A stretch of 64,000 nt of DNA. Origin: a bacterium. GTDB lineage: Bacteria; UBA8248; JACPRG01; G963555815. Of this stretch, positions 37,154 to 50,624 are shown piece after piece (position 1 is the stretch's first letter; each line of letters starts with the position of its first letter). The notes below the pieces were generated by a model. It did no database searches, had not been told where the DNA came from, and was given only the letters and a program-made list of their open reading frames with translations. The DNA lies in NCBI GenBank assembly GCA_965218795.1, contig OZ244653.1, forward strand, positions 1,888,001 to 1,952,000, given 5' to 3'. The position numbers and the translations under genes were made by a program.

Positions 37154-37812
37154 GGTGGACCCCTTCAGACTGTGCGCAGGAGGAGTTCAGATGGCAAAGA
37201 CCATCTGCCCTACGCGCCGGAATACCGGCGCCAGATGGTCGAGTTGGTCCGCTCGGGCCGGACGCCCGGGGAGCTGGCTTCGAGAATACGAGGGCTCCAC
37301 TTCGGCAATTCGCAACTGGGTGCGTCAGGCCGACCGGGACGGGGACCGTCGTGAGGATGGTCTGACGGCAGCAGAGCTTGAGGAGCTACGACGGCTTCGC
37401 CGGGAGAACCGTCAGCTTCGCGAGGAGCGTGAGATATTAAAAAGAATCCACGGCTTGGTTACGCACGGGAGACCGGTTGGGTGCCGGGTGCTGGGCGTCT
37501 CCTCCAGCGGGTACTACGCGTGGCGTGGCGGTGGGCGTTCTCTTCGTGCGAAGCGCGACGAGGAGCTACGCGGTGTGATTCGGGCCCTCCACGAGGCGTC
37601 TCGGGGCACTTACGGGGGGCACCTCGGGTCCAGGCCGAGTTGGCGGCTCAGGGATGCCGGGTGAGTCGCAAGCGGGTGGCTCGTCTGATGCGCGAGGTGG
37701 GCTTGGGGAGGTGAGCCGGCGCCGAGGCACACACACCGGGCGTGTAGACCCGGGCCATCGTGTTCGATGGGTTCAGCCGCCGGGTGGTGAGATGGACGAT
37801 GGCCCATCCTCT
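37154..37812 (+). mobile_element. Degraded third copy of the 21569 IS3
   Basis: Shares GTGGAC.CCTTCAGACTGTGCG and PYAPEYRRQMVELVRSG; many indels. Confidence 0.8.
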
Positions 37813-37819
37813 TCTCCAC

Positions 37820-38298
37820 TCGGCTACAAGCCCCTGGTCGGCGCCCAGATGCGCTACGCCGTCCACGACCGCGACGGCCGGCCGGTCGCCATGCTCGGCT
37901 TCAGCTCCGCCGCGTGGAAGCTGGCCCCTCGAGACCGCTTCATCGGTTGGACGCCGCAACTGCGCGAGAAGAACCTCCCCCTCGTGGTCGACAACCCGAG
38001 GTTCCTCATCCTGCCCTGGAGCAAGATCCCCAACCTGGGCTCGCACATCCTCGCCATCGTCCGCCGGCGCCTGCCCGAGGACTGGACCGGGCGCTACAAC
38101 ACCACCCCCGTGCTCATCGAGACCTTCGTCCAGACCCCGCGCTACACCGGCGCCGTCTACAGGGCATCGGGCTGGATCCATGTCGGAACCACCCAGGGAC
38201 GCGGACGCTACGACAGGGACAGACACTACGACAAGCCGAAGAAGGACATCTGGCCGCGACCGCTGCGGAGAAACTGGAAGCAAATCCTCAATCGCTGA
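37820..38298 (+). pseudogene. DUF4338 (Druantia DruA-like) domain gene, 5'-truncated
   Basis: LGYKPLVGAQMRY, AAWKLAPRDRFIGW, NPRFLILPW, LIETFV, GAVYRASGW..VGTTQGRG. Confidence 0.82.
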
Positions 38299-38340
38299 AA
38301 CGACCGCCATCACCCCACGGTTGAATGGTTACCGACAGGG

Positions 38341-38575
38341 GTAACCGTTCAGTCGTGGGGTGATAGAGCGGACTCCAGCATCGTCTGGGTCTAGCTTGAC
38401 GGCGGGTGCACGGACATGATGACCAGGTTGAGAATTTTGGCCGTGTACCGCAACCGCTTGATTCTCCTGCCGCCTTCTAATTGCGAAAGCACTGGGTCGG
38501 GGCGACCACGTTCGGACAAGACAACGGACCGCTGCTGGCCCCGCCGCCATCATCACCCCACGAGCGAACGGTTAT
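38341..38575. mobile_element. 235-bp MITE with IS66-like ends
   Basis: 24-bp IRs GTAACCGTTCAGTCGTGGGGTGAT / ATCACCCCACGAGCGAACGGTTAT; 8-bp duplication CGACAGGG at 38333 and 38576. Confidence 0.85.
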
Positions 38576-38825
38576 CGACAGGGACTCGCCGAGATGCGCA
38601 GGAGTTTTAACGAATCCGCTTTCATTTTGATGACGGACTGCAGAAGGCAGGTTCCGAATGAGATTGGGAATCATGTATATTCCCAATAATATCAATAGGA
38701 TATTAGGTTTCACAGTCGACGAAAATAGATCGATATATCTATCCGAACAAACGATATCTTGCCAAAGGGGAAACGAGAACCCCCGGATGACAGAGGGAAG
38801 GAGCCGTGACATCGGCAGAGAAGAT

Positions 38826-38934
38826 GGATTCCCGCCGCAGTCTGTCCTCGAACGTCATAGTCGAGGGCAGGAATGACCGGGTTGGAGGTCACGTGTGGCC
38901 CGTGCTCGTCATTCCTGCGCAAGCAGGAATCCAG
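38826..38934. repeat. REP-like hairpins
   Basis: GGATTCCCGCC...GGCAGGAATGAC and GTCATTCCTGCGCAAGCAGGAATCCA, same family as 16953-16978. Confidence 0.65.
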
Positions 38935-39067
38935 GCACTGCGAGAGAAGGACCTGGGCAGCCCCTGAAGCTCTACGACACCGAACGACTTCATCAGGGCT
39001 ATCGCAATATGGGGAGGCGACCCACCGTCACGGTCAGGAAGTTTATCCAATCTGTCAGGAAAGATGC

Positions 39068-39349
39068 CTAGTCATACACTTTACGACTTACCTCATCAAT
39101 TCTCGCCTTTTGATAAACAACGTAGCTGTCCCTTTTTACAAATGGGTGCTCTCCGGGTTCTAGAATGCAGGCAGAATCGTGATAGAGATCGTCGTGAATG
39201 CTTGAAAGACTTACAAGTAACACTTTTCTGATTCCATCATCAAAATTGCACAATGGGTCTGTAAGAACAACAAACAAATGCATCCGATCAGGGTCATGAT
39301 CAGGCCCAGAGCGCATAAGTAGAGTAGCTCGTTTGAATGGGAGAAACAA
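39068..39349 (-). CDS. Putative toxin partner of Panacea (MazF/PemK-like), possibly truncated
   Basis: HLFVVLT...VLLVSLSS...CILEPGEHPFVKRDSYV; directly after the antitoxin; same AT-rich block. Confidence 0.5.
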   Translation of the reverse strand: MFLPFKRATLLMRSGPDHDPDRMHLFVVLTDPLCNFDDGIRKVLLVSLSSIHDDLYHDSACILEPGEHPFVKRDSYVVYQKARIDEVSRKVYD

Positions 39350-39364
39350 TGTGAATTCCCAAGC

Positions 39365-39919
39365 CTAAAGAGATTCGAAAGCGGTGTCTACATCTTGGTG
39401 TTCATCAATTCTTTTTGATAATTCACGAGCTTTATCTTCTTCATATCCAAGAGCTAAAAAGATGCTTTTGTATGATGTTGGCTTTGATGTTCCGTATGGA
39501 TTTTTCCATTCTTTAAGGGTGTGTGTGTAATTTCGAAGTTGCCACTTGTCAAAATCACCAAATTCTTTCCAGGTATGTTCAAGAATCTCCATATCAGCTT
39601 CACTAAGCTCATCAAAATCATCAGCACATGTCTGTACTTTGAGTTTGGTATCATACCCCTCACGGGGCGATATCCATGAATCCCAACCGTCCTCAACAGA
39701 TTCAATAGACGTACCATTAGCTAGATTAAGTGTATTTGACAATACCAATCCGTGATCCATTGAAACTACGAAATCGCCTGTCATTGGCATACCATAACGA
39801 TTAAGAGACTCTCGCTCAGAGAGATATAAAAGCTTCATTAGTTTGAGTATCGCCATTTCTCCACCTTGGCGTTGGAGAAAATATGCAGCCATTTGCGCTA
39901 CTTTTCGTTCATCAAACAT
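39365..39919 (-). CDS. Panacea/SocA (DUF4065) antitoxin
   Basis: LKLMKLLYLSER, MTGD..VSMDHGLV, LRNYTH...EW. Confidence 0.85.
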   Translation of the reverse strand: MFDERKVAQMAAYFLQRQGGEMAILKLMKLLYLSERESLNRYGMPMTGDFVVSMDHGLVLSNTLNLANGTSIESVEDGWDSWISPREGYDTKLKVQTCADDFDELSEADMEILEHTWKEFGDFDKWQLRNYTHTLKEWKNPYGTSKPTSYKSIFLALGYEEDKARELSKRIDEHQDVDTAFESL

Positions 39920-40475: not shown

Positions 40476-41300
40476 CTAAAGGGGCGGAACGGTCGCCTTG
40501 ATAGAGACAGGCATATTTTGAAAGGTTTCTACAAATCCCGTTGTGTTTGTCACGATGGCCTCGAAAATTTTCTCCCCCTTCTCCACTGATGCAAGGGTAG
40601 CCGCTCCGCCAACTCCCGGCACACTTCGGTTCTGCCCGTATTCCTCCATTGTCGGAGGAAAAGAGAGCTTGGGATTTTCGACTCGATTGACGGCGTGGTC
40701 CACAGACACGAACCGGTGTTCGAAATCGCCCACCTCGGGAATTGCGTCCACCGCACGCTCCATCTTGACCTGCTCACCATACTTGTAAAGCATAAAAGAG
40801 GTCTCGGATTCACACCCGTGGCCTATTCCTCCCGGGGGACTCTCGCACACGGCACGAATCTCTCTCCCGGCGACAAGCGCCAGGTCCACGATGGCAACGG
40901 CCGCACCCGTCTGATTCCTGACCCGCACGACTGCAATCTCCAACGGGGGGAGATTCGCGACCCGATGTCCATTGAGGATCACGATATGTTTGAAACCATG
41001 AATGACAAGGCTGTTACATACGTCCTCGACAACACGCGTCAACGTCTCCGCGGCGAGCGATATCGTTCCCGGAAACGCGAGATGATGAGGCGACCACCCG
41101 AACCACAGGGGAGAGGCAATCAAGGCGTCCGCTCGCTCGGCCACCTCCTCGGCGGTCGCGATGGCCTCGGCCGCATCCGTTCCGATTGGGCAATGAGGCC
41201 CATGTTGCTCTGTGGCGCCGACGGGTACGAGCACCGTATCCCCATCCTCGAGGTATTCTTCTACGTCCGGCCAGGTCAGTTCCTGTATCCAACGACTCAT
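40476..41300 (-). CDS. Creatininase family amidohydrolase
   Basis: PVGATEQHGPH, GTD, SPHH, NGH, GHGCESETS. Confidence 0.92.
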   Translation of the reverse strand: MSRWIQELTWPDVEEYLEDGDTVLVPVGATEQHGPHCPIGTDAAEAIATAEEVAERADALIASPLWFGWSPHHLAFPGTISLAAETLTRVVEDVCNSLVIHGFKHIVILNGHRVANLPPLEIAVVRVRNQTGAAVAIVDLALVAGREIRAVCESPPGGIGHGCESETSFMLYKYGEQVKMERAVDAIPEVGDFEHRFVSVDHAVNRVENPKLSFPPTMEEYGQNRSVPGVGGAATLASVEKGEKIFEAIVTNTTGFVETFQNMPVSIKATVPPL

Positions 41301-41336
41301 GAATTCTTTCTCCTCATTTGCCCGACGACCCGATGG

Positions 41337-41804
41337 CTACGATTTGGGCTCCACCCACCTCGGCCAACTTCGCCGGAGGGCCTCGCATTCGGCCACCTGA
41401 ATGCCCGTGATGAGCTTGATGGTTCGATTCGTTATGCCCAAGAGCTTCTCAACTGAATAGTCTCCATAGTCGGTTCGCCCCATTTCAGCATGGCGCGCCC
41501 CCAAAACGACCGTTCCAATGCCTGCCTCGATGATCGCCCAGCAGCACATCGGGCAGGGTTCCATCGCAGTATAGAGCGTCGCCCCGGACAGGTCGGGAGA
41601 ACCCAATGCTCGACATGCGTTTCGAATGGCGTCGGTCTCACCATGACAGGTGGGATCAGCGTCAGAGTTGACGCGGTTTTGTCCCCTGCCGATCACTGCT
41701 CCATTTCTGACGATGACTGAGCCGACGGGAACGTTCCCCGATTCGAGCGCAAGACGTGATTCCTCGATCGCCAACCCCATGAAATGATTATGCTCTTCTG
41801 ACAT
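41337..41804 (-). CDS. Zn-dependent nucleoside/nucleobase deaminase
   Basis: DPTCHGE and EPCPMC; ATG 41804 after GGAGG. Confidence 0.9.
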   Translation of the reverse strand: MSEEHNHFMGLAIEESRLALESGNVPVGSVIVRNGAVIGRGQNRVNSDADPTCHGETDAIRNACRALGSPDLSGATLYTAMEPCPMCCWAIIEAGIGTVVLGARHAEMGRTDYGDYSVEKLLGITNRTIKLITGIQVAECEALRRSWPRWVEPKS

Positions 41805-42070
41805 TGAAGTTCCTCCATGCCTGCGGCGCAATGAAAAAACGCGACGTCTGGGAGCGCGCGCCCGTGGAATGGCAATGGACGCTTACTTGATGCTCACTCG
41901 AATCAGGATACCTGCCCGGAAATTCAGGCGCCGTTCCCGACCTTTGTGCAAGTCCCATGAGACTTGGGGGTATTTTCCCATCGATCAGCCTTTGATGCTA
42001 ATGAGCGCCATTCAAATCATCTTGACTCTGAAAGATGTTTCGCTTGACATGAGCTGAAAGTAGCCTTAAA

Positions 42071-42098
42071 ATAATTTTTAGTCATATCAAATAATATA
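42071..42098. promoter_or_regulatory. AT-rich imperfect palindrome, candidate DtxR/MntR operator
   Basis: ATAATTTTTAGTCATATCAAATAATAT immediately upstream of the regulator in GC-rich DNA. Confidence 0.35.
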
Positions 42099-42107
42099 TT
42101 TTAGGAA

Positions 42108-42770
42108 ATGGAGCGTATGCTTTCGAAACAGTTGGAAAACTATTTGAAGACTATCTGGGCCCTGGAAAAAGAGCACGGCTCAGTGACCACGAAACTCCTG
42201 GCCCAATATCGGGAAGTCTCCCCAGCCTCTGTAACGAGCATGCTGAAGAAGCTGAATGGAATGAAGCTCATCGATTATCAGCCCTATCGGGGAGCCAAAT
42301 TGACCCCGCGGGGGGAAAAGGTCGCATTGGAGGTTCTACGGCATCACAGGATCATCGAGCTTTATCTCTCCGAGGTTGTGGGGCTCCCATTGGATCGCGT
42401 GCATGCTGAAGCGGAGGAACTGGAACACGCGCTCTCCGAGGAGTTGGAAGCGGTTCTCTTTGAAAGGCTGGGTCAACCAACACGCGACCCCCATGGGGAT
42501 CCGATTCCCTCCCTGAATGGTGAAATGGTCACTGATGGGATCCGGCTGCTGGAGGCAAATGCGGGGGAATCTCTGGTTGTGGTCCGGATTAGAGACCGAA
42601 ATCCCCAGATTCTCAAATATCTCACAACGTTGGGGCTCCGCCCCGGCGTAGAAATTACAATCCTGGAAAAGCTCCCATTCAACGGCCCCGTCCGGATACT
42701 GATCGCAGACGTGGAGCGCACGCTTGGACAGGAGGTGTCCAAGGAGGTCTTTGTCTCGTCCTTTGAATGA
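42108..42770 (+). CDS. DtxR/MntR family metal-dependent repressor with FeoA-like C-terminal domain
   Basis: ENYLKTI, SPASVTSM, RHHRIIE, HAEAEELEH, DPHGDPIP. Confidence 0.93.
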   Translation: MERMLSKQLENYLKTIWALEKEHGSVTTKLLAQYREVSPASVTSMLKKLNGMKLIDYQPYRGAKLTPRGEKVALEVLRHHRIIELYLSEVVGLPLDRVHAEAEELEHALSEELEAVLFERLGQPTRDPHGDPIPSLNGEMVTDGIRLLEANAGESLVVVRIRDRNPQILKYLTTLGLRPGVEITILEKLPFNGPVRILIADVERTLGQEVSKEVFVSSFE

Positions 42771-42871
42771 TAAATGCGCTGAAGCCGGAGAGACAAGAAT
42801 TCACAGATATCCACCATCCCGATGTCTGGTGGGCTGAACCGCTGATGTCGCATAGGGAGCACAGGTGAAGC

Positions 42872-44833
42872 ATGAAGGCGCGAGGAAACCAGAACCCCAG
42901 ATTCAGGCGATTCCGGATAGGGGCGCTTGCCGCTGGTCTTGGTCTTCTCCTGGCGGGAGTGACCCTCCCCGGGATGAAACCCGCACGCGGCCATGTCGTC
43001 CCTCCAGAAAAACTCCACCCGGCGGCCGAGAGTTACCGTCGCGCCGCGTTTTTGATGAATCTGAATCCCGTCGTTTGGGGCCAAGTATGGGGCGACATGC
43101 AAATCATCACCAAATCCATCGAGCGGGTCGACCCCGAAGCTGGGAAGAAGTTTCGCGAGGAGATCCAGGCCGCCCGCAAAATCGCAGAGCCTGCCCCGCA
43201 GGACGGAGAGGACCCTGATTGGGTCTCCGCACGCGAAAACGGACGGCGCGCCGTTTTCACGTCAACGACCCGAAGCGTGTCCGGCCTGATTGTTCGTCTC
43301 ATTGAACGAATTACGCCGGGATCCGGACGCCGAACCGTCGAGGGCAATTTGCGTGAAGCACGAAAAGTGGCCCGGGCTTTTGCCGACACCCTTCCTTACC
43401 TCGACCCGCAGGCATGGCGGGAAATGCAGGTGAGCTGGCTGGAAGCCAGCACGAGACTGGGGACGCCCGGCGTCCTCAAGGTCGGGGCCCGCGCGATGGA
43501 CGTCGAGGGCATCCGCGCCGCCTTATCCCCAATTGTGGAATACATGACCCGGAATTTTTCAAATTTCACCGCCGGCCCGGAGCGGCGGCTGGCGCCAAGA
43601 CCGCTGGCCAGCCCCTCCTACGATAAGCAGGCTAAAATCCCCGTGCGGCTTCCCCCCGGGGCCAACATCAACAAGCAGCTCCCCCGCCCCCGGCAGATTC
43701 TGGGGATGGCCGAACGGGGGGTGGACGAGAGAGAAACCACGATGATCGCGCTGGGCGACATGGCATTTGACAGCCCTCGGATCCTCGGGGAACCCGCCAA
43801 GAGCTTGGGGATCAGTTGCAATACCTGTCACAACAAGGGCGTCACCAATCCGCGGTTCTTCATTCCGGGCATTTCCAGCCGAGCCGGAGGCGTGGACGTC
43901 TCGAATTCGTTTTTTGCCGGACACGCCAACAACGGCGTATTCGATCCCGTAGACATCCCGGACCTGCGCGGCATCCGTTTCACGGCGCCCTTTACCCGGA
44001 ACGGCCGATTCCCGACCCTGCGGGAGTTCACGCGAAACGCCATCGTCAACGAGTTCAACGGCCCAGAACCGGATCCCATGATCCTGGACGCAATGATCGC
44101 GTACATGAACGAGTTTGAGTTCCTCCCCAATCCTCTGTTGAACAAGGACGGAACGCTCAACGGGAAAAGGGCCTCGCCCGCCGCTCTGTGGGGGGAAAAA
44201 ATCTTCCGCCGACCCTTTCCGCAGATGATGGGGGGAAAGAGCTGCGCCAGTTGCCATATTCCGTCCGCCCTTTTCATTGACCACAAACAGCACAACATCG
44301 GAAGCGTAAAAGGCGGATACCATAAGCACTCGCACGACGGCGCCTTGGATACGCCGACGCTGCTCTCCGCGAAATTCACAGCGCCCTATTTCCATGACGG
44401 GAGCCTGCCGACGCTCCGCGCCGTGAACGAGTGGTTCAACCGAAAATTCCGACTCGACCTGTCTCGGAAGGAATTGGCCGACCTGACGGCCTATGTGGAA
44501 GCCGTTTCCGACGGCGTGGAGGCACGAGAGGATTCGGTATTCACGCTGAAGCCTGAAATGGAAGAGTTTCAATTCTTCCTTTCGACCTATGATTTTCTGA
44601 AACAGAGGAAGAAGAAAGAACTGATCACCATTCTGCTGCGCACCGTGGCGGACGAGGTCCAGGCGCACAAATGGGACGTTCAGCAAAAGGAGATGCTGCC
44701 GACTTTGAACCGGATGGAAGGTCTCCTTCGCGAGGCCCTGGCGGCGCATCAAGCCGGGAAGATCGATGAAACCGAAGCCAAGCTGGCGGCATATCATGGA
44801 ATGTATGAGGAAAACGTCGAACAACTCAAATAA
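42872..44833 (+). CDS. Secreted di-heme cytochrome c (CCP/MauG superfamily) with extra N- and C-terminal domains
   Basis: Signal peptide; CNTCH (43817-43831) and CASCH (44243-44257); TPTL..., TAPYFHDGS. Confidence 0.82.
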   Translation: MKARGNQNPRFRRFRIGALAAGLGLLLAGVTLPGMKPARGHVVPPEKLHPAAESYRRAAFLMNLNPVVWGQVWGDMQIITKSIERVDPEAGKKFREEIQAARKIAEPAPQDGEDPDWVSARENGRRAVFTSTTRSVSGLIVRLIERITPGSGRRTVEGNLREARKVARAFADTLPYLDPQAWREMQVSWLEASTRLGTPGVLKVGARAMDVEGIRAALSPIVEYMTRNFSNFTAGPERRLAPRPLASPSYDKQAKIPVRLPPGANINKQLPRPRQILGMAERGVDERETTMIALGDMAFDSPRILGEPAKSLGISCNTCHNKGVTNPRFFIPGISSRAGGVDVSNSFFAGHANNGVFDPVDIPDLRGIRFTAPFTRNGRFPTLREFTRNAIVNEFNGPEPDPMILDAMIAYMNEFEFLPNPLLNKDGTLNGKRASPAALWGEKIFRRPFPQMMGGKSCASCHIPSALFIDHKQHNIGSVKGGYHKHSHDGALDTPTLLSAKFTAPYFHDGSLPTLRAVNEWFNRKFRLDLSRKELADLTAYVEAVSDGVEAREDSVFTLKPEMEEFQFFLSTYDFLKQRKKKELITILLRTVADEVQAHKWDVQQKEMLPTLNRMEGLLREALAAHQAGKIDETEAKLAAYHGMYEENVEQLK

Positions 44834-44884
44834 CGGAGCCACCCGACCGACAACGGGGAGGCGACCGCTCCAGCGGATGAGGGC

Positions 44885-45847
44885 GTGTCAGTGGCCCGGA
44901 TGATGGAACGGCCGGTCAGGAGAATCAAGATGGTTCAATTGGCAGGAGGCACCGCGCGTCGGAGAAGATGGGTGGCGATGGGCCTATCCGCCCTGTTCCT
45001 GTTCGCAATGGCGATGGCGGGACCCCCGGCGGAAGGCGCCGAGAAAGGAAAGCCGCCTCTTCGAATCGCCTTCATACCCTTTGAAAATCCGGAGCAGTTG
45101 ATCGACAACGTCCGGCCGGCCATTGTGTTCCTCGAAAAAGAGATGGGCCAAAAGATCAAGCACTTCATCACGATGAATTACTCAGCGGCCGTCGAGGCCC
45201 TCACCGCAGGGCGGGCGGACATCAGCTTCATGTCGCCATTGCCCTACGTGCTTGCCCACAACCAAACCGGCGCGAAGGCCATCCTGGGGGAGATCTACAA
45301 CGGAAAGTCCTATTACCACTCCAAGATCTTCGTCAGAAAAGACAGCGGTATTAAGAGGTTGGCCGATCTCAAGGGGAAAACCATTGCCTATGTGGACCCG
45401 CTCTCCAGTTCCGGCTTCATGTATCCTCACGACGCATTCGTGCGGGCGGGTCTCGTCAAAGGCGGTCTGGACCGGCCGGAGGGCGGCTTCTTCCGGCGCG
45501 TCTACTACGCCGGGGGCGATGAGCAGGCCATCCGTTCGGTTCATGGTCGGTTTGTCGATGCCGGGGGAATCGGGGAGTTTGCGCTGAACCTTCTCCGGCA
45601 GGATGAGCGCGACGACATCAAAGCGATCGGGCAATCCATCCGGATTCCCAGTCACGTCGTGGTCGCCCGAAAGGGCTTGAACCCCGTCCTCAAGAAAACA
45701 TTCATCGATGCCATGGTGAAGCTCAACGACCCCAAGCATCGACAAATCGTTCAGTCCCTGTACGGAACGGACGGATACGTCTGCGTAAGCCATGAAGACT
45801 ATCGGTCGGTGGAAAAGCTGGCGCGCAAATACGGGTTTCTGAAATGA
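44885..45847 (+). CDS. PhnD/PtxB-like ABC substrate-binding protein (exact start uncertain)
   Basis: LRIAFIP, NYSAAVEAL, LADLKGK, VDPLSSSGFMYP. Confidence 0.88.
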   Translation: MSVARMMERPVRRIKMVQLAGGTARRRRWVAMGLSALFLFAMAMAGPPAEGAEKGKPPLRIAFIPFENPEQLIDNVRPAIVFLEKEMGQKIKHFITMNYSAAVEALTAGRADISFMSPLPYVLAHNQTGAKAILGEIYNGKSYYHSKIFVRKDSGIKRLADLKGKTIAYVDPLSSSGFMYPHDAFVRAGLVKGGLDRPEGGFFRRVYYAGGDEQAIRSVHGRFVDAGGIGEFALNLLRQDERDDIKAIGQSIRIPSHVVVARKGLNPVLKKTFIDAMVKLNDPKHRQIVQSLYGTDGYVCVSHEDYRSVEKLARKYGFLK

Positions 45848-46692
45848 CCCCCTCCGAAGCCATCATTCACATCCGGGATTTGACGGTCGAGGCGGGAGGC
45901 CGGCGCGTCCTGTCCATTGACCGGCTCGAACTCGTCAGCGGCGAACGGGTGGCCATCATCGGGAACAGCGGAGCCGGGAAGACCACCCTGCTCCGCATGA
46001 TTAAGGGATACGTCCAGCCGACCCGCGGGAGCGTTCACGTGTTGGGAGAGTCGCTTCCCATCCGTGACGGAGCAAAACGGCGCTCCTATCATCGGCAGAT
46101 CGGCATGATCCACCAGCAGTTCGACCTGATTGGCCGTGAATCCGTATGGCAAAACGTTTGCCACGGCAGACTCGGGTACGTCTCACTTCTCCGCAGCATC
46201 TTCGGCCTCTTAGAGCGCGCCGATCGGGAACGCTGCAGAGCGGCCATCGAAGAAGTTCACCTCGATGACAAGCTGGATCGCCAGGCGCGCTCCCTCTCCG
46301 GCGGGGAGATGCAGCGCGTGGCCATCGCTCGCGCGTTGGCTCAGAACCCGACTATCCTTCTTGCGGATGAGCCGGTATCGAGCCTCGATCCAACGCTGGC
46401 GGAGGAGATTCTTTCCCTCCTCGTGACGATTGACGCGAGACACCCCCTGACCCTTCTGATGAGCCTCCATCATCCGGGGCTGGCGAATCGGTACGCCGAA
46501 CGGATTCTAGCCCTTAAAGATGGGATCATTATCTGGGACGGCCCCTCAACCGAATTGTCTGAATCAAAGGTCAATGAGATATATGGAAGAGATTGGACCC
46601 GCGGAGCCCGAAATGGTCAACCGGAAGAAGAGGAGCGGAAGTTCCCCGATTGGTCAGGCGGTTCTCAGGGGTTTGCCGTGGCTGGCAGCTAG
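45844..46692 (+). CDS. PhnC-like ABC ATP-binding protein
   Basis: GNSGAGKT, LSGGEMQRVAIARAL, LADEPVSSLDP. Confidence 0.9.
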   Translation: MTPSEAIIHIRDLTVEAGGRRVLSIDRLELVSGERVAIIGNSGAGKTTLLRMIKGYVQPTRGSVHVLGESLPIRDGAKRRSYHRQIGMIHQQFDLIGRESVWQNVCHGRLGYVSLLRSIFGLLERADRERCRAAIEEVHLDDKLDRQARSLSGGEMQRVAIARALAQNPTILLADEPVSSLDPTLAEEILSLLVTIDARHPLTLLMSLHHPGLANRYAERILALKDGIIIWDGPSTELSESKVNEIYGRDWTRGARNGQPEEEERKFPDWSGGSQGFAVAGS

Positions 46693-47404
46693 CGGGATCA
46701 TTGTCTGGTCCCTCTATGGATCAGAATTTTCCGGAAGTCTTTTCTGGAAGGGCATCCCGCAGATCCTTCGATTTTTCGGCCGGATGCTCCCGCCGAACTG
46801 GTCGGTGTGGGACGTCCTGCTCCGCGCGTCGGTCGAAACACTCCAGACGACCATCGCGGGAACCTTCCTGGGGGTCGCCTTCGCCTATCCGCTGGGTCTG
46901 CTGGCCGCCTCCAACTGGACGCCTGGTTGGGTTTATCTCCCCCTCAAGGGTTTCCTAGCGTTTATCCGGTCCATTCCCCTTCTGCTATTGGCGCTGCTGT
47001 TCGTATCGGCGGTCGGACTGGGACCTTTTCCCGGGATGCTGGCGCTCGCAGTCCATTCGGTGGGGGTGCTGGCGCGGTTCGTGGCCGAGGAGATCGAAGC
47101 CACCAATCCGAAACCAATACTGGCTCTTCAAGGCACCGGAGCGTCCCCGCTGCAGATCATTCAGCACGGCCTGATCCCGCAGGTCCTCCCGCAGATGGTC
47201 GCACATCTGGCCATTCGGTTCGAGATGAACCTGCGGGACTCGACCATTCTGGGTCTGGTAGGTGCAGGGGGACTGGGCTTTTATGTCTTTCTGTACGTCA
47301 AACAGTTCCAGTGGCAGAAGGCGGGTGTCCTCTGTCTGGCCATCATTATTCTGGTCATCGCAGGCGAATTCGTCAGCTGGCAGGTTAGAAAAAGACTCAT
47401 CTAA
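46613..47404 (+). CDS. PhnE-like ABC permease
   Basis: ETLQ...GT, RSIP, FEMNLRDSTILGLVGAGGLG; ATG 46613 after GGAG. Confidence 0.9.
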   Translation: MVNRKKRSGSSPIGQAVLRGLPWLAASGIIVWSLYGSEFSGSLFWKGIPQILRFFGRMLPPNWSVWDVLLRASVETLQTTIAGTFLGVAFAYPLGLLAASNWTPGWVYLPLKGFLAFIRSIPLLLLALLFVSAVGLGPFPGMLALAVHSVGVLARFVAEEIEATNPKPILALQGTGASPLQIIQHGLIPQVLPQMVAHLAIRFEMNLRDSTILGLVGAGGLGFYVFLYVKQFQWQKAGVLCLAIIILVIAGEFVSWQVRKRLI

Positions 47405-47433
47405 CGATATGAGAGGGGGCCCCTGGACTCCGG

Positions 47434-48231
47434 CTACATGTGGAGACCGCCGTTCACACCCAGAACGATCCCCGTTATGTAATCGGAATCGGGCGAACAT
47501 AAGAAATACACGGCTTGGGCCACATCTTCAGGCTCGCCCTGACGGCCCAGGGGGATGCCTCGCAGGACCTTTTCAATGATCTCGGGCGGGAGGCCCGCGG
47601 CATCCCCCCCCTTTTTCTCCGCGGTCATGCGGGTCTTGATAAATCCGGGCGCAACACAATTGACGTTGATTCGGAATCGGGCCCATTCCCGGGCCACTGT
47701 TTTCGTGAGGGATATGATTCCGCCTTTTGCGGACGAGTAATTGGCCTGTCCCGGATTTCCCGTCTCTGCGACGACGGAAGTGAGGCTGACGATTTTTCGG
47801 TGGTGTGTCTCTCCCGCCTCCAGCTCCCGCTTCGCAACGTCCCGCATCCACGGAGAGGATGAGCGAATCATATGAAAACTGCCCGTGAGATGTACGTCGA
47901 GAACCGACTGCCAGGTGGGATCGTCCATTTTATGGATGAGGGCGTCTCTCAGGTTCCCCGCATTGTTAATCAGAATATCCAGGCCACCGTAGGTCTCGGC
48001 CGCGGTCCGGACAATACTCCCCGCCCCCACCGGATTCGAAACGTCGCCCGCGCAAGCCAATGCCTCCCCCCCGGTACGGCGGATTTCTTCTGCGACCTCC
48101 TCGGCGGGATCCGGATCCAAATCGTTCACGATCACAGCCGCTCCGCCCTCGGCAAGGCGCAAAGCGATGGCACGACCGATGCCCCGTCCCGCGCCCGTCA
48201 CGAGGGCGCGCCGGTGTTCGAGATCACTCAT
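47434..48231 (-). CDS. SDR oxidoreductase, FabG-like
   Basis: TGAGRGIG, NNAG, YSSAK. Confidence 0.92.
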   Translation of the reverse strand: MSDLEHRRALVTGAGRGIGRAIALRLAEGGAAVIVNDLDPDPAEEVAEEIRRTGGEALACAGDVSNPVGAGSIVRTAAETYGGLDILINNAGNLRDALIHKMDDPTWQSVLDVHLTGSFHMIRSSSPWMRDVAKRELEAGETHHRKIVSLTSVVAETGNPGQANYSSAKGGIISLTKTVAREWARFRINVNCVAPGFIKTRMTAEKKGGDAAGLPPEIIEKVLRGIPLGRQGEPEDVAQAVYFLCSPDSDYITGIVLGVNGGLHM

Positions 48232-48459
48232 GAGTATTCCCCTCTAACGAATCAACCTCCCAGTATCGGGAAAGCCTGTCTTCCCGACGCTGCGTTCCCG
48301 GGAGGATTTCCATCGGCCCGTCATCTTCTTTCATCCTGATTCCTATACCGGCCTCAAGTCAATGCCACAATTTCACCTGACGCGACCGAGTCGTCCTCCC
48401 AGAGATTAGGCAGGTTGGAGACGAGGGTGAAAGCATCAGATCACGCCACAGAGAGAAAT

Positions 48460-48990
48460 CATCTTTGAAAAGATCCTTCCAAGGGATAATCATCGGTGCA
48501 GGAATCGGTTGTGTGACCGGTGTGATGGAGACGTACCTGATTCTCTTGGTGGCCCTGCCTTCGTGCGCAGACCTACACACACGACATGGAGCGTTCTTCA
48601 CATCATCCTGACGGCCATGATCCTGAACGCTGCCGGATGTTCGTGAGGGTCAAACCTCATACGGACAGAATCCAGCTGAGCCTCTATGCCGTCGTTTTCG
48701 CCCGGATCCTGCTGTCTGGATACGTGTTTCTCCTTTTCATCACGGTGAATTCCGGGATTGTCCGACTCATTGGCGAACCTCTCCTTTTTACTGGTTGCAA
48801 TCGTTCTCATATGGTTCTTCCTGAGGCAATCTCCTTCCGCCGGGGGAAATGCTCCATCATTGAGCCCAGGTCTGGGAGCGGCAATCGTGGCCGCGGCATT
48901 CACGGGAACGCTGAGTCTGGCGGACGTTCACGCCGCGCTATCGCAATCAGGTCTTCCATCCAGCCGACCCCTCCGTTTTCCGAGCACCCC
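48460..48990 (+). pseudogene. Possible decayed membrane-protein gene
   Basis: Hydrophobic stretches spread over three + frames (GIIIGAGIG, LLSGYVFLLF, FLLVAIVLIWFF). Confidence 0.3.
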
Positions 48991-49175: not shown

Positions 49176-50624
49176 ATGGCTTATCGCGACATCCGTGAAC
49201 ATTTGGCTGCGCTGGAATCCAAGGGGAAATTGAGGCGCATCCAGAAATACGTCGATCACACCTGGGAGCTGGCGTGCCTGGCGCGTTGGATGTTTCAGGC
49301 ATTGCCCGATGAGGAGAGATTCGGGCTCCTCTTCGAGCGGGTTCAGGGATTCAATACGCCCGTCATGACAGGCGTATTGGGAGCCTCCCGCTCGACCTAT
49401 GCGACCGCGCTCGAAGTCGAGCCGGACGAGGTCAACGAGAAATGGGTCGAGGCGCTTCGCCATCCGATGACTCCCGTGGAAGTCGAATCCGCTCCCTGTC
49501 AAGAGGTTGTTCTTGAGGGGGATGCCGTCGACCTGAGCGCCTTTCCCATCCCCATCTGGACTCCCGGAAAAGACGTCGCGCCTTACGTGACGACCATCGT
49601 CATCAGCCGGGATGACGATACAGGCGTCCAAAACGCAGCGACCTACCGAACGATGGTCAAGAACACGCAAGAGATGGTCATCAATCTCACTCCCGGGCGT
49701 CACGGGACGCTCTGCTACGAGTCCTACGTCAACAAGGGCAAGCCGGCGCCGTTCGCTTGGGTCATCGGCGCGGAACCCGCGGCCCATTTGGCTGCCGTGT
49801 GCAACGTCCCATACGGGAGGGACGAGCTCTCCATTGCCGGAGGGTTGAAGGGGTCGCCGCTGGAAGTCGTCAAGGCGAGAACATCGGAACTCCTGGTTCC
49901 CGCGAACGCCGAAATGATCATCGAAGGGGAATTGCGGCCGCAGGAAACGTCTGAAGAAGGGACGTTCGGAGAGTTTGCCGGGTATATGGGCCCAGTCGCC
50001 CAGAAACCGATGGTTCACGTCAAGGCCATCACCCACCGCAAAGACCCGATGTATTACGGTTACATCAGCCAGCTTCCCCCGAGCGAGAGCACCGTCATCC
50101 AGAGCATGAGCAATGCGGGCCTTCTGGTGAAAATGCTTCGTCACGATCTGGGTCACAACACGGTCAAGGACGCTTACATCGACCTGACCTACGGCGGCCT
50201 CCTGTCGCACGGCATCATCTCGATGCGGCCGCTCTATCCGGCCCACGCCAAGCGGGTCGGGCGTCTCATCGCCGAGGCCACCTTGCTGAAGCGGATCACC
50301 GTTGTCGATGAGGACATCGATATCCGGGACCCGATGCACCTGGATTGGGCCATGAACTCCCGATTCAACGCCCAGCGGGATACCATCATCATCGACGACG
50401 TATATACGCCCGCCGTGCTGGATCCGACCGTCCGCATCCGGGACGGAGAGCCCGAGATGAGCAGCAAGCTGATCCTCGATGCCACCGAAAAAGAGGACGC
50501 CGGAGACATCTCTCTCCCGCACAAAGACATAATGATGAAGGCTCTCGACGTGTGGAATGAAATCGGGCTTCCCGAATTCAAGATCCCCAAACGCGTCCAG
50601 GCGTTCCTGGACCGCTATCCATAG
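49176..50624 (+). CDS. UbiD family prFMN-dependent (de)carboxylase
   Basis: MAYRDIREHL, NAATYR, EGTFGEFAGY, VDEDID; ATG 49176 after AGGAG. Confidence 0.93.
   Translation: MAYRDIREHLAALESKGKLRRIQKYVDHTWELACLARWMFQALPDEERFGLLFERVQGFNTPVMTGVLGASRSTYATALEVEPDEVNEKWVEALRHPMTPVEVESAPCQEVVLEGDAVDLSAFPIPIWTPGKDVAPYVTTIVISRDDDTGVQNAATYRTMVKNTQEMVINLTPGRHGTLCYESYVNKGKPAPFAWVIGAEPAAHLAAVCNVPYGRDELSIAGGLKGSPLEVVKARTSELLVPANAEMIIEGELRPQETSEEGTFGEFAGYMGPVAQKPMVHVKAITHRKDPMYYGYISQLPPSESTVIQSMSNAGLLVKMLRHDLGHNTVKDAYIDLTYGGLLSHGIISMRPLYPAHAKRVGRLIAEATLLKRITVVDEDIDIRDPMHLDWAMNSRFNAQRDTIIIDDVYTPAVLDPTVRIRDGEPEMSSKLILDATEKEDAGDISLPHKDIMMKALDVWNEIGLPEFKIPKRVQAFLDRYP

Follow-up and report, generated by a model that had tools for sequence, protein, structure and literature searches.

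Gene content and promoter of the locus

We studied a 64,000-nucleotide stretch of a bacterial genome (contig OZ244653.1 of assembly GCA_965218795.1, positions 1,888,001 to 1,952,000 of the forward strand), which is referred to as the window. At 42108-47404 of the window, five co-directional open reading frames (ORFs) on the + strand encode a DtxR/MntR-type regulator, a di-haem protein and PhnD-, PhnC- and PhnE-like transporter components. The initial annotation had read them as close or overlapping genes of one direction, and our ORFs agree with it in strand and position. The regulator (42108-42770, 220 residues) is a DtxR-family protein of the MntR type, comprising a helix-turn-helix domain, a dimerisation/metal domain and an FeoA/SH3-like domain. 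The haem protein (42872-44833, 653 residues) begins with a signal peptide and matches the CCP_MauG and RoxA-like cytochrome c families. It is followed by a periplasmic binding protein with the PhnD/PtxB fold and an altered pocket (44885-45847, PF12974; 320 residues as the longest ORF), a PhnC-like ABC ATPase (45844-46692) and a PhnE-like ABC permease (46520-47404 as the longest ORF).

A sigma-70-like promoter on the + strand (42044-42072; TTGACA-17 nt-TAAAAT, 11/12 consensus matches) precedes the regulator gene. Five promoter-like sites were observed in 41800-47700, compared with 1.9 +/- 1.4 in shuffles, and this one is the sole match of such strength; in the same scan, no comparable promoter was found before the haem gene. 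The palindromic operator-like box TTTTTAGTCATATCAAATAATA (42075-42096, + strand) begins 3 nt past the -10 hexamer and ends 12 nt before the start codon of the regulator. A site directly after the -10 hexamer is the classical position of a repressor. The lone consensus-like promoter 5' of the cassette stands before the regulator gene, which supports the five genes being one unit, proposed to be an autoregulated operon. An Rfam search of 41000-48500 with E-values up to 1 gave zero matches, and no riboswitch was found there. Two sequencing runs that may be RNA contain contigs of 150-230 nt within the haem gene and phnE.

The haem and transporter genes form an obligate cassette

Two genome scans seeded on the haem protein yielded 131 loci, which were pooled into 88 unique ones; the loci of a third scan are kept outside these counts. 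In 78 of the 88, the 3' end of the haem gene is present together with at least 2.7 kb of downstream DNA. In 77 of these 78 assessable loci, the haem gene is succeeded on its own strand by PhnD, PhnC and PhnE; 76 loci have them at the expected distances, and in one (L165) an outer-membrane gene separates phnD from the haem gene. The single exception without a transporter is L051. The first 57 loci alone had given the same arrangement in 49/50. Conversely, a reciprocal scan seeded on binding-protein peptides placed a haem gene directly 5' in 78/80 loci (exceptions L282 and L303); these loci come largely from the same genomes, and thus offer a reciprocal view rather than independent data. The binding-protein ORF overlaps the haem stop codon by 4 nt in 38/79 loci when the longest-ORF starts are used. 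Because the order recurs in 77/78 loci, chance gene order is excluded, and these data support an obligate cassette of haem, PhnD-, PhnC- and PhnE-like genes across phyla. The synteny of haem-protein homologues with PhnDCE, which the initial annotation had proposed to look for, therefore holds.

We clustered the flanking ORFs of the 88 loci. Besides phnD/C/E, only two neighbours are widely shared: 30 loci have a DtxR-family gene, and 19 have an outer-membrane barrel gene of PF13557, a family that we take to be the same as COG4313. Phosphonate-catabolic, arsenic, selenium or sulfur genes are not conserved beside the cassette in this clustering.

All hosts are uncultured, and the three haem-seeded scans returned only metagenome-assembled genomes (MAGs) or single-cell genomes, from about ten named phyla. 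The hosts labelled in the records include Nitrospinota, Acidobacteriota, Planctomycetota, Verrucomicrobiota (Opitutales, Moanabacter), Hydrogenedentota and Sumerlaeota, and further Lentisphaeria, Nitrospirales, Oligoflexia and a Deltaproteobacteria MAG. Within the GTDB phylum of the window, exactly one copy is present in 31/51 genomes, including 23/23 of one genus. A tree of 80 haem proteins departs from the record-named phyla: Planctomycetota are scattered over four places, and a single-cell genome labelled 'Nitrospinae' clusters with Planctomycetota. Such a mismatch suggests that the cassette moves between lineages.

Broken arrangements of the cassette are rare. In one Hydrogenedentales MAG (L030, L303), the haem gene and a following regulator gene lie on a different contig from the transporter genes. 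In the Planctomycetota MAG with L051, the haem gene is shortened, without residues about 127-263.

The di-haem protein has two family-specific domains

Structure prediction of the haem protein gave a model with a predicted local distance difference test score (pLDDT) of 84 and a pTM of 0.80. The signal peptide spans residues 1-40 (42872-42991), with a helix at 9-34 in the model and predicted cleavage at A-R-G / H41. The family-specific all-alpha N-terminal domain (residues 41-262; 42992-43657) contains seven helices over residues 50-229, at pLDDT 91-99, and residues 35-44 fall below 50. Next comes the di-haem core of the CCP/MauG fold (residues 263-555; 43658-44536), with CxxCH motifs at 316-320 and 458-462. 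The C-terminal four-helix bundle (residues 556-653; 44537-44833, stop included) consists of helices 559-570, 582-602, 606-627 and 631-652, with pLDDT 92-98. The Pfam CCP_MauG model covers only residues 441-517 (45.2 bits, above the gathering threshold), and the solved CCP/MauG chains align only to about residues 276-555. Since both kinds of alignment cover the core only, the N-terminal extension of about 250 residues and the C-terminal extension of about 100 residues are real. The initial annotation had described a 653-residue protein with two CxxCH motifs, an N-terminal extension from HVVPPEKLHP and a helical C-terminal extension, and the alignments and the model agree with it.

The N-terminal domain starts with H-V-V-P-P-E-K-L-H-P after a small-x-small signal-peptidase site. 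A strict pattern of this motif fits 69 of the 83 unique loci that hold the N-terminus, and 67 of the fitting loci have His directly after the predicted cleavage site, while two have Asp; the preceding sites are AxA in 36 and VxA in 13, with others fewer. In the closest relative (L093, haem protein 73% identical), Asp and Leu replace His41 and His49, and this joint loss hints that both residues act as a pair. We considered a histidine-brace metal site at His41/His49, an idea weakened by L093 and by the two Asp variants. A phmmer search with the N-terminal domain against 1.84 billion representatives gave 79 matches with no other architecture evident, where the matches were taken as the same family or its fragments from their lengths and match positions as a set. 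An Atlas search with this domain returned no usable match, and one with the whole haem protein returned only clusters named 'cytochrome c peroxidase'. Looking up the clusters of ten relatives yielded no names.

A wide fold search, which tested mainly residues 276-653 of the model, placed the core among the di-haem enzymes. The matches include the bacterial cytochrome c peroxidase (CCP) BccP (3o5c, Z 13.8, 228 residues aligned, root-mean-square deviation (rmsd) 3.7), MbnH-like 6e1c (Z 13.2), the gamma subunit of hydrazine synthase (5c2v_C, Z 12.8) and MauG (Z 12.7). Across BccP, YhjA, MbnH-like, hydrazine synthase gamma, MauG and BthA, the Z-scores range from 11.9 to 13.8 over 216-235 residues. 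The Foldseek E-values are weak, about 5e-05 and worse, the best being 4.7e-05 (5c2v_C). The C-terminal bundle superimposes on cytochrome b562/BRIL-type bundles with Z about 12 (rmsd 1.9-2.1 over about 95 residues), a value that helical bundles in general easily reach.

The motifs C316-N-T-C-H320 and C458-A-S-C-H462 are invariant in 112 relatives. At the inter-haem position, where CCPs read F-W-D-G-R, the protein reads PFTRNGR (residues 373-379; family consensus P-Y-G-R-N-G-R). We placed this motif by an internal-repeat alignment and the family alignment, and the absence of the Trp noted in the initial annotation is confirmed. The position of the Met ligand is occupied by Trp521 (A-V-N-E-W, compared with A-V-N-T-M in 3o5c), and Phe522 stands at the axial-ligand position of MauG Tyr294. 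His474, in the motif H-x-I-G after the second CxxCH, is invariant and aligns with T-H-D-V-G of hydrazine synthase gamma; it may be the sixth ligand of haem 2. In the C-terminal bundle, E562, E565, E595, H599 and W601 are invariant, and H41 and H49 at the N-terminus are near-invariant.

The haem protein reaches no equivalog model: its scores are far below the cut-offs of both MauG (TIGR03791, 26.5 vs 443.85 bits) and MbnH (TIGR04039, 40 vs 362.85 bits), and neither mau genes nor mbnP are among the conserved neighbours of the cassette. Family scores, alignments and fold search together support placing the haem protein outside the characterised CCP, MauG and MbnH clades, as the initial annotation had expected for the canonical CCPs. 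It represents a large clade of the CCP/MauG superfamily that has so far gone uncharacterised and that has two new domains and a fixed partner.

The binding protein has lost the signature residues for phosphite and phosphonate

The binding protein scores 195.5 bits with PF12974 and 174.2 bits with TIGR01098 (cut-off 112.05), and reaches only 167.9 bits with the PhnD equivalog TIGR03431 (cut-off 261.1). It models as a closed PhnD-fold protein with pLDDT 88. The fold matches include liganded PtxB (TMt 0.84-0.85; 5o37 0.85) and ArrX (6x8w, 0.88), then PhnD, HtxB, AioX and GpxB, and beyond them transferrin lobes (E about 1e-13, TM about 0.61). By sequence, it matches Ps_PtxB (5o2j) with 105 bits.

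In PtxB, phosphite is held by two Tyr, a His and an S-T-S triad, together with a Tyr that caps the site and an Asp that serves as its latch (PMC5700983). Comparing these positions in the cassette family revealed a partly retained and partly replaced site. The loop VDPLSSSGF is kept, the segment AGGDE has Gly at the position of Ps_PtxB His155, and IPSH has His at the capping Tyr (P-Q-Y in PtxB). The Gly occurs in 79/79 family sequences, in line with the initial annotation, which had reported an intact DPxSxSG loop and the replacement of the conserved His by AGGDE. The capping Tyr corresponds to His257 in the window protein and to P-S-H in 71/79 sequences; the pattern failed on the other eight. 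The position of the latch Asp16 is never Asp. On the other hand, Y49 and Y94 of PtxB are kept as Y99 and Y144 in 30/30 aligned sequences, and the Ser/Thr triad corresponds to S174-176, which reads S-S-S in 65/79 and D-M-S in 14/79. The regulator is present in 11 of the 14 loci whose binding protein reads D-M-S. Y99, Y138, Y144, Y293 and His257 are invariant in the family. These comparisons show that the pocket has lost the phosphite/phosphonate signature residues.

Among other NCBIfam models, a putative selenate binder matches all 30 members scanned (best E-value 1.3e-29), although the window protein reaches 75.8 bits against a cut-off of 250, and a tetrathionate sensor model gives a faint match.

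The ATPase ORF overlaps the binding-protein ORF by 4 nt. It scores 235.5 bits with TIGR02315 (cut-off 266.1) and 119 bits with PF00005. The permease scores 260.6 bits with TIGR01097, above the cut-off of 216.7; the model match begins at residue 55, and the true start probably lies downstream of 46520. Taken at its longest, the PhnE ORF shares 173 nt (46520-46692) with the 3' end of phnC, and in relatives the tblastn matches to PhnC and PhnE overlap by about 65-170 nt.

The initial annotation had remarked that no C-P lyase or ptxD is nearby; the operon holds neither a C-P lyase nor a ptxD-like gene, and PhnJ was not found anywhere in the 98.9%-complete host genome. Elsewhere, this genome has a canonical phnD-phnC-phnE-phnE operon as well, which is not accompanied by a haem gene (G000:C1:2506000-2510400; L092 4766-8347). 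The PhnD encoded there retains S-T-S and G-A-H-D, and its identity to the cassette binding protein is only 30%. Nramp was not found in the host genome, and its ZnuA-family binders are one ZnuA-like protein and one that is ambiguous between AztC and MntC. The "phosphonate transporter" (PhnDCE-type) annotation is probably wrong for the cassette subfamily.

A DtxR-family regulator and an operator are recurrently linked to the cassette

The regulator exceeds the Pfam cut-offs for PF01325 (66.2 bits), PF02742 (92.1 bits) and PF04023 (63.6 bits). Its best NCBIfam model is MntR of the Thermus type (196.3 bits, under the cut-off of 350), compared with 91.5 bits for DtxR (cut-off 290). The closest solved chains are 8pvt (156 bits), 5zr4 (133 bits) and ScaR (96 bits), and MntR-type, ScaR and SloR chains outrank those of DtxR/IdeR. 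At the metal site, H-A-E-A-E-E-L-E-H of the regulator aligns with V-H-L-E-A-C-R-W-E-H of an iron-type chain, so that Glu takes the position of DtxR/IdeR Cys102, and E105 and H106 are kept. ScaR and the two best matches carry Glu as well, whereas the DtxR-family chain 7b25 carries Cys. We assume that Glu at this position marks the Mn-responsive branch of the family. In an alignment of 17 DtxR-family sequences, the cassette-linked regulators have Glu in 11/13 and Cys in 2/13, the two Cys-bearing ones being from Hydrogenedentota.

A DtxR-family gene lies within the fetched flanks of 30/88 unique loci, in same-strand upstream, divergent or downstream position. On the tree of 80 haem proteins, regulator presence changes 11 times, with at least nine changes forced by well-supported branches, compared with 22 changes on average for shuffled labels. 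This distribution supports a recurrent link between DtxR-family regulators and the cassette, through at least nine independent changes. The co-occurrence with dtxR suggested in the initial annotation is thus recurrent, but it does not extend to most loci.

We built an operator matrix from 22 distinct boxes of 24 relatives' loci without an adjacent regulator, leaving the window out of the training. In the training loci, the palindrome 5' of the haem gene reads TTTAG-N6-CTAAA and is followed by AATAT. With this matrix, the box at 42075-42096 tops the whole 5.17-Mb host genome with 25.8 bits, and the next unrelated match has 18.6 bits; two 2-Mb shuffles peaked at 14.0 and 17.9 bits. Compared by eye, the window box and that of L024 are identical in 23/25 positions. 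In loci outside the training set, the box scores 30.7 (L009), 27.7 (L117), 25.9 (L022), 24.4 (L014) and 15.8 bits (L093), and in L014 and L093 it stands 5' of the regulator gene, as in the window.

Five complete genomes of relatives encode the regulator orthologue (49-52% identical) away from the cassette. Allowing up to one mismatch, four of the five genomes have the site nowhere but at the cassette promoter, and in the fifth the cassette site carries two mismatches; elsewhere in these genomes, two-mismatch sites appear at the rate of a reversed-pattern control. These scans support the conservation of the operator even where the regulator gene sits elsewhere in the genome. Beside the unlinked regulator genes themselves the box was not found (best score 5.4 bits), nor did the matrix find a second operator in the 5.17-Mb genome of the window. 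As far as sequence can tell, the regulon comprises this one operon, both in the window genome and in four of the five genomes of relatives that were scanned. In other clades, different palindromes occupy the same place, e.g. TTTGA-N4-6-TCAAA and TTAAC-N4-6-GTTAA; these types were defined post hoc on the same promoters, and their enrichment is descriptive only.

Several neighbouring features were observed besides. In L071-L075, the unlinked regulator orthologue lies directly 3' of a gene of about 450 residues with a TonB C-terminal domain; where the ORFs 3' of the orthologue were scanned, a cupin gene follows it in L072 and a gpsA-like gene in L072 and L075. The host genome has a second, short DtxR-family regulator of 182 residues (G000:C1:82270-82464; L067) with Cys at the Cys102 position, which adjoins an ABC ATPase with a TOBE domain. 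A weaker matrix match of 16.7 bits at 49228-49249, inside the start of a UbiD-like gene, falls within the range of shuffled sequence and is probably due to chance. The genes around the operon are unrelated to it: creatininase and deaminase genes on the opposite strand at its 5' side, and a convergent SDR gene (47434-48231) at its 3' side. Farther upstream, a low-GC patch near 37654-39919 (GC 0.42 at 39-40 kb, about 0.58-0.64 around) contains a SocA/Panacea antitoxin-domain ORF (39365-39919, - strand), a small unassigned ORF alongside (39068-39349) and a truncated-looking DruA (Druantia) match (37654-38298). The patch may be a defence or mobile islet that borders the neighbourhood of the operon on its upstream side.

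Proposed working of the cassette

We propose, with confidence that is evenly balanced, that the cassette is an importer of the manganese type, induced by metal starvation and equipped with a periplasmic redox partner. When the metal is replete (most likely Mn(II), possibly Fe(II)), the repressor would bind the palindrome past the -10 box and shut the operon, including its own gene. The operator site, its conservation and its link to the regulator are read directly from the genomes, and we infer that the repressor binds there and which metal it senses. Under metal scarcity, the cassette would be expressed. Judging from their signal peptides, the haem protein and the binding protein would then be exported to the periplasm. 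The binding protein, having lost the His and Tyr that hold phosphite, would no longer recognise phosphite or phosphonate and would instead supply the PhnCE importer with a metal, either as the ion or in complex with an oxyanion.

The di-haem protein may perform a redox step on the substrate before the hand-over. Two options are conceivable. Mn(III) or Fe(III) complexes could be reduced, with electrons arriving via the second haem, as in a peroxidase working on another oxidant; or M(II) could be oxidised by the di-haem protein. In about a fifth of the loci, the outer-membrane barrel gene would complete the route.

A metal-limitation uptake system had already been put forward in the initial annotation. 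Its unit, regulator link, operator and altered pocket stand, while the metal ligand, the redox role and the preference for Mn over Fe stay at the level of a proposal.

Several observations weigh against this metal-import model. Metal binding and redox activity are both predictions of the model. The regulator adjoins the cassette in only 30/88 loci, a single residue is an unsafe guide to metal specificity in the DtxR family, and two linked regulators have the iron-type Cys. The operator is unique to the operon in the window genome and in four of the five relatives, and so gives no tie to any known Mn gene. The closest relative, L093, has neither of the N-terminal His residues, Asp and Leu standing in their place. 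In the binding protein, the two Tyr and, in 65/79, the Ser triad are kept, and the permease passes the PhnE cut-off, which makes an oxyanion or organophosph(on)ate substrate possible. As for the outer-membrane gene, we equate its family with COG4313. The one solved member lets ions and glycine through a narrow channel, but its authors considered hydrophobic molecules the likelier cargo (PMC4493636). The evidence from this family does not favour either a metal or an oxyanion.

A bolder form of the model, which we consider doubtful, is that the cassette is the first redox-coupled manganese acquisition system, in which, under Mn starvation, the periplasmic di-haem enzyme converts environmental Mn(III)-ligand complexes (or Mn(II)) into a form taken up by a PhnD-fold protein remodelled as a metal or metal-plus-anion binder, which would pass it to a PhnCE importer, the module having spread by gene transfer in uncultured marine, sponge-associated and groundwater bacteria.

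Alternative substrates and functions

In the main rival reading, the cassette imports a phosphorus compound or another oxyanion; the retained Tyr/Ser site and the PhnE equivalog score keep this reading alive. In its phosphorus form, an importer of phosphite, phosphonate or organophosphate would have a di-haem partner that oxidises or trims the compound, and the DtxR link would be cross-talk. All three transporter parts belong to PhnCDE families, the binder fold matches PtxB, PhnD, HtxB and the glycerol-phosphate binder GpxB, and Y99, Y144 (30/30) and S174-176 (SSS in 65/79) are kept. The site itself speaks against such a ligand: Gly takes the place of the third-oxygen His in 79/79, neither the capping Tyr nor the latch Asp is retained, and the anion loop of 14 sequences reads Asp-Met. 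The window protein scores below the cut-off of the PhnD equivalog (168 vs 261 bits), and 30 members scanned give E-values of 9.9e-59 at best. Moreover, the host has its separate canonical PhnDCEE and no PhnJ was found in it, the DtxR family is the sole recurrent regulator, and no phosphonate-catabolic neighbour is conserved. We regard a phosphorus importer as unlikely.

It is also improbable, in our judgement, that the haem protein is a MauG/MbnH-like maturase, which would oxidatively modify a residue of the binding protein (e.g. Tyr, Trp) and so build a metal site, with the modified binder delivering the metal to PhnCE. MauG and MbnH-like 6e1c, which modify a partner protein, are among the nearest folds (Z 12.7 and 13.2), and the 6e1c structure is titled as linked to copper homeostasis. 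The haem and binding-protein genes are obligate neighbours, often with a 4-nt overlap, and the binding protein has the invariant residues Y99, Y138, Y144, Y293 and His257. Against this stand Phe522 at the position of the MauG Tyr ligand, the absent inter-haem Trp, and scores far under the cut-offs (MauG 26.5/443.85 bits, MbnH 40/362.85 bits).

An importer of another small anion (arsenate, arsenite, selenate or a sulfur oxyanion), whose redox state the haem protein would convert, has a small chance of being right. Here the arsenate binder ArrX (6x8w) is the top match by TM-score (TMt 0.88) and AioX matches too, the selenate binder model hits 30/30 members at E-values down to 1.3e-29, and the tetrathionate sensor match is faint. 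Yet arsenic, selenium and sulfur genes are not conserved beside the cassette, the selenate model stops at 75.8 bits with a cut-off of 250, and the regulator is a DtxR-family metal sensor, neither ArsR-type nor two-component.

Finally, a peroxide defence enzyme that is switched on when Mn-based protection fails, next to an importer that is unrelated and adjacent by history, would fit the bacterial CCP fold of the core and the Mn type of the regulator, but is very hard to reconcile with the reciprocal synteny (77/78 and 78/80) and frequent start/stop overlap that point to one function, with the missing Trp and Met ligand of canonical peroxidases, and with the two large extra domains that are conserved.

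Significance of the cassette

All parts of the cassette belong to known families, and their combination does not appear in the literature searched. We searched for MntR/DtxR with a phosphonate transporter or peroxidase, di-haem families, manganese limitation and Nitrospinota, and found no such module, in keeping with the statement of the initial annotation that no described system has this make-up. The passages on the superfamily network in the BthA paper make no mention of such a clade (PMC6405878). This gap in the literature exists because all hosts are uncultured.

The probable mis-annotation as PhnDCE matters for reading phosphorus cycling from metagenomes. The fixed importer partner gives a concrete handle on the function of the new CCP/MauG clade. 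If the metal-import model is true, the uptake of manganese (or iron) by bacteria of low-metal habitats would gain a redox step. In addition, the cassette supplies a matched regulator-operator pair, which is open to testing in vitro without a cultured host.

Comparison with known systems

EfeUOB, with the haem peroxidase EfeB, and Fet3-Ftr1 are redox-coupled iron uptake systems, and binders of the FbpABC/transferrin type use a synergistic anion. They serve as working analogies only: the former for a periplasmic redox protein obligately coupled to a metal importer, the latter, ferric binders, for a type-II fold with an anion site and Tyr/His ligands. We saw no sequence relationship of the cassette to EfeU/O/B or FbpA.

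PtxABC/PhnCDE (Ps_PtxB 5o2j, Te_PtxB 5jvb, E. coli PhnD 3p7i) have the same three transporter families, the gene order D-C-E and the binder fold. Unlike them, the cassette has a di-haem gene in front and a DtxR-family protein as its recurrent regulator, and lacks an oxidising or C-P cleaving partner (ptxD, htxA, phnJ). Compared with PtxB, the cassette binder has Gly for His155, His257 for the capping Tyr and no latch Asp16.

CCP, MauG, MbnH, BthA and YhjA share the two CxxCH motifs and the two-domain core fold with the haem protein. In contrast, the cassette protein is twice as long, with a 220-residue helical N-terminal domain and a 100-residue C-terminal four-helix bundle, and it lacks the inter-haem Trp and the Met ligand residue of canonical CCPs. 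Its partner is an ABC importer, whereas that of MauG is preMADH and that of MbnH is MbnP. The best solved relative, by profile (47 bits) and by Foldseek E-value, is hydrazine synthase gamma (5c2v_C). The two share the second-haem segment, C-x-x-C-H ... H-D-(I/V)-G, at a core identity of just 19-26%. Hydrazine synthase gamma is a subunit of a multi-subunit anammox enzyme, and the alpha/beta genes are absent at the cassette.

MntABC, SitABCD and MntH share with the cassette the regulator family and its logic, in which an ABC importer is controlled through an operator that overlaps the promoter. Unlike MntABC/SitABCD, the cassette employs a binder that is not of the ZnuA/TroA (cluster A-I) type, a PhnE-like permease and, in addition, a haem protein.

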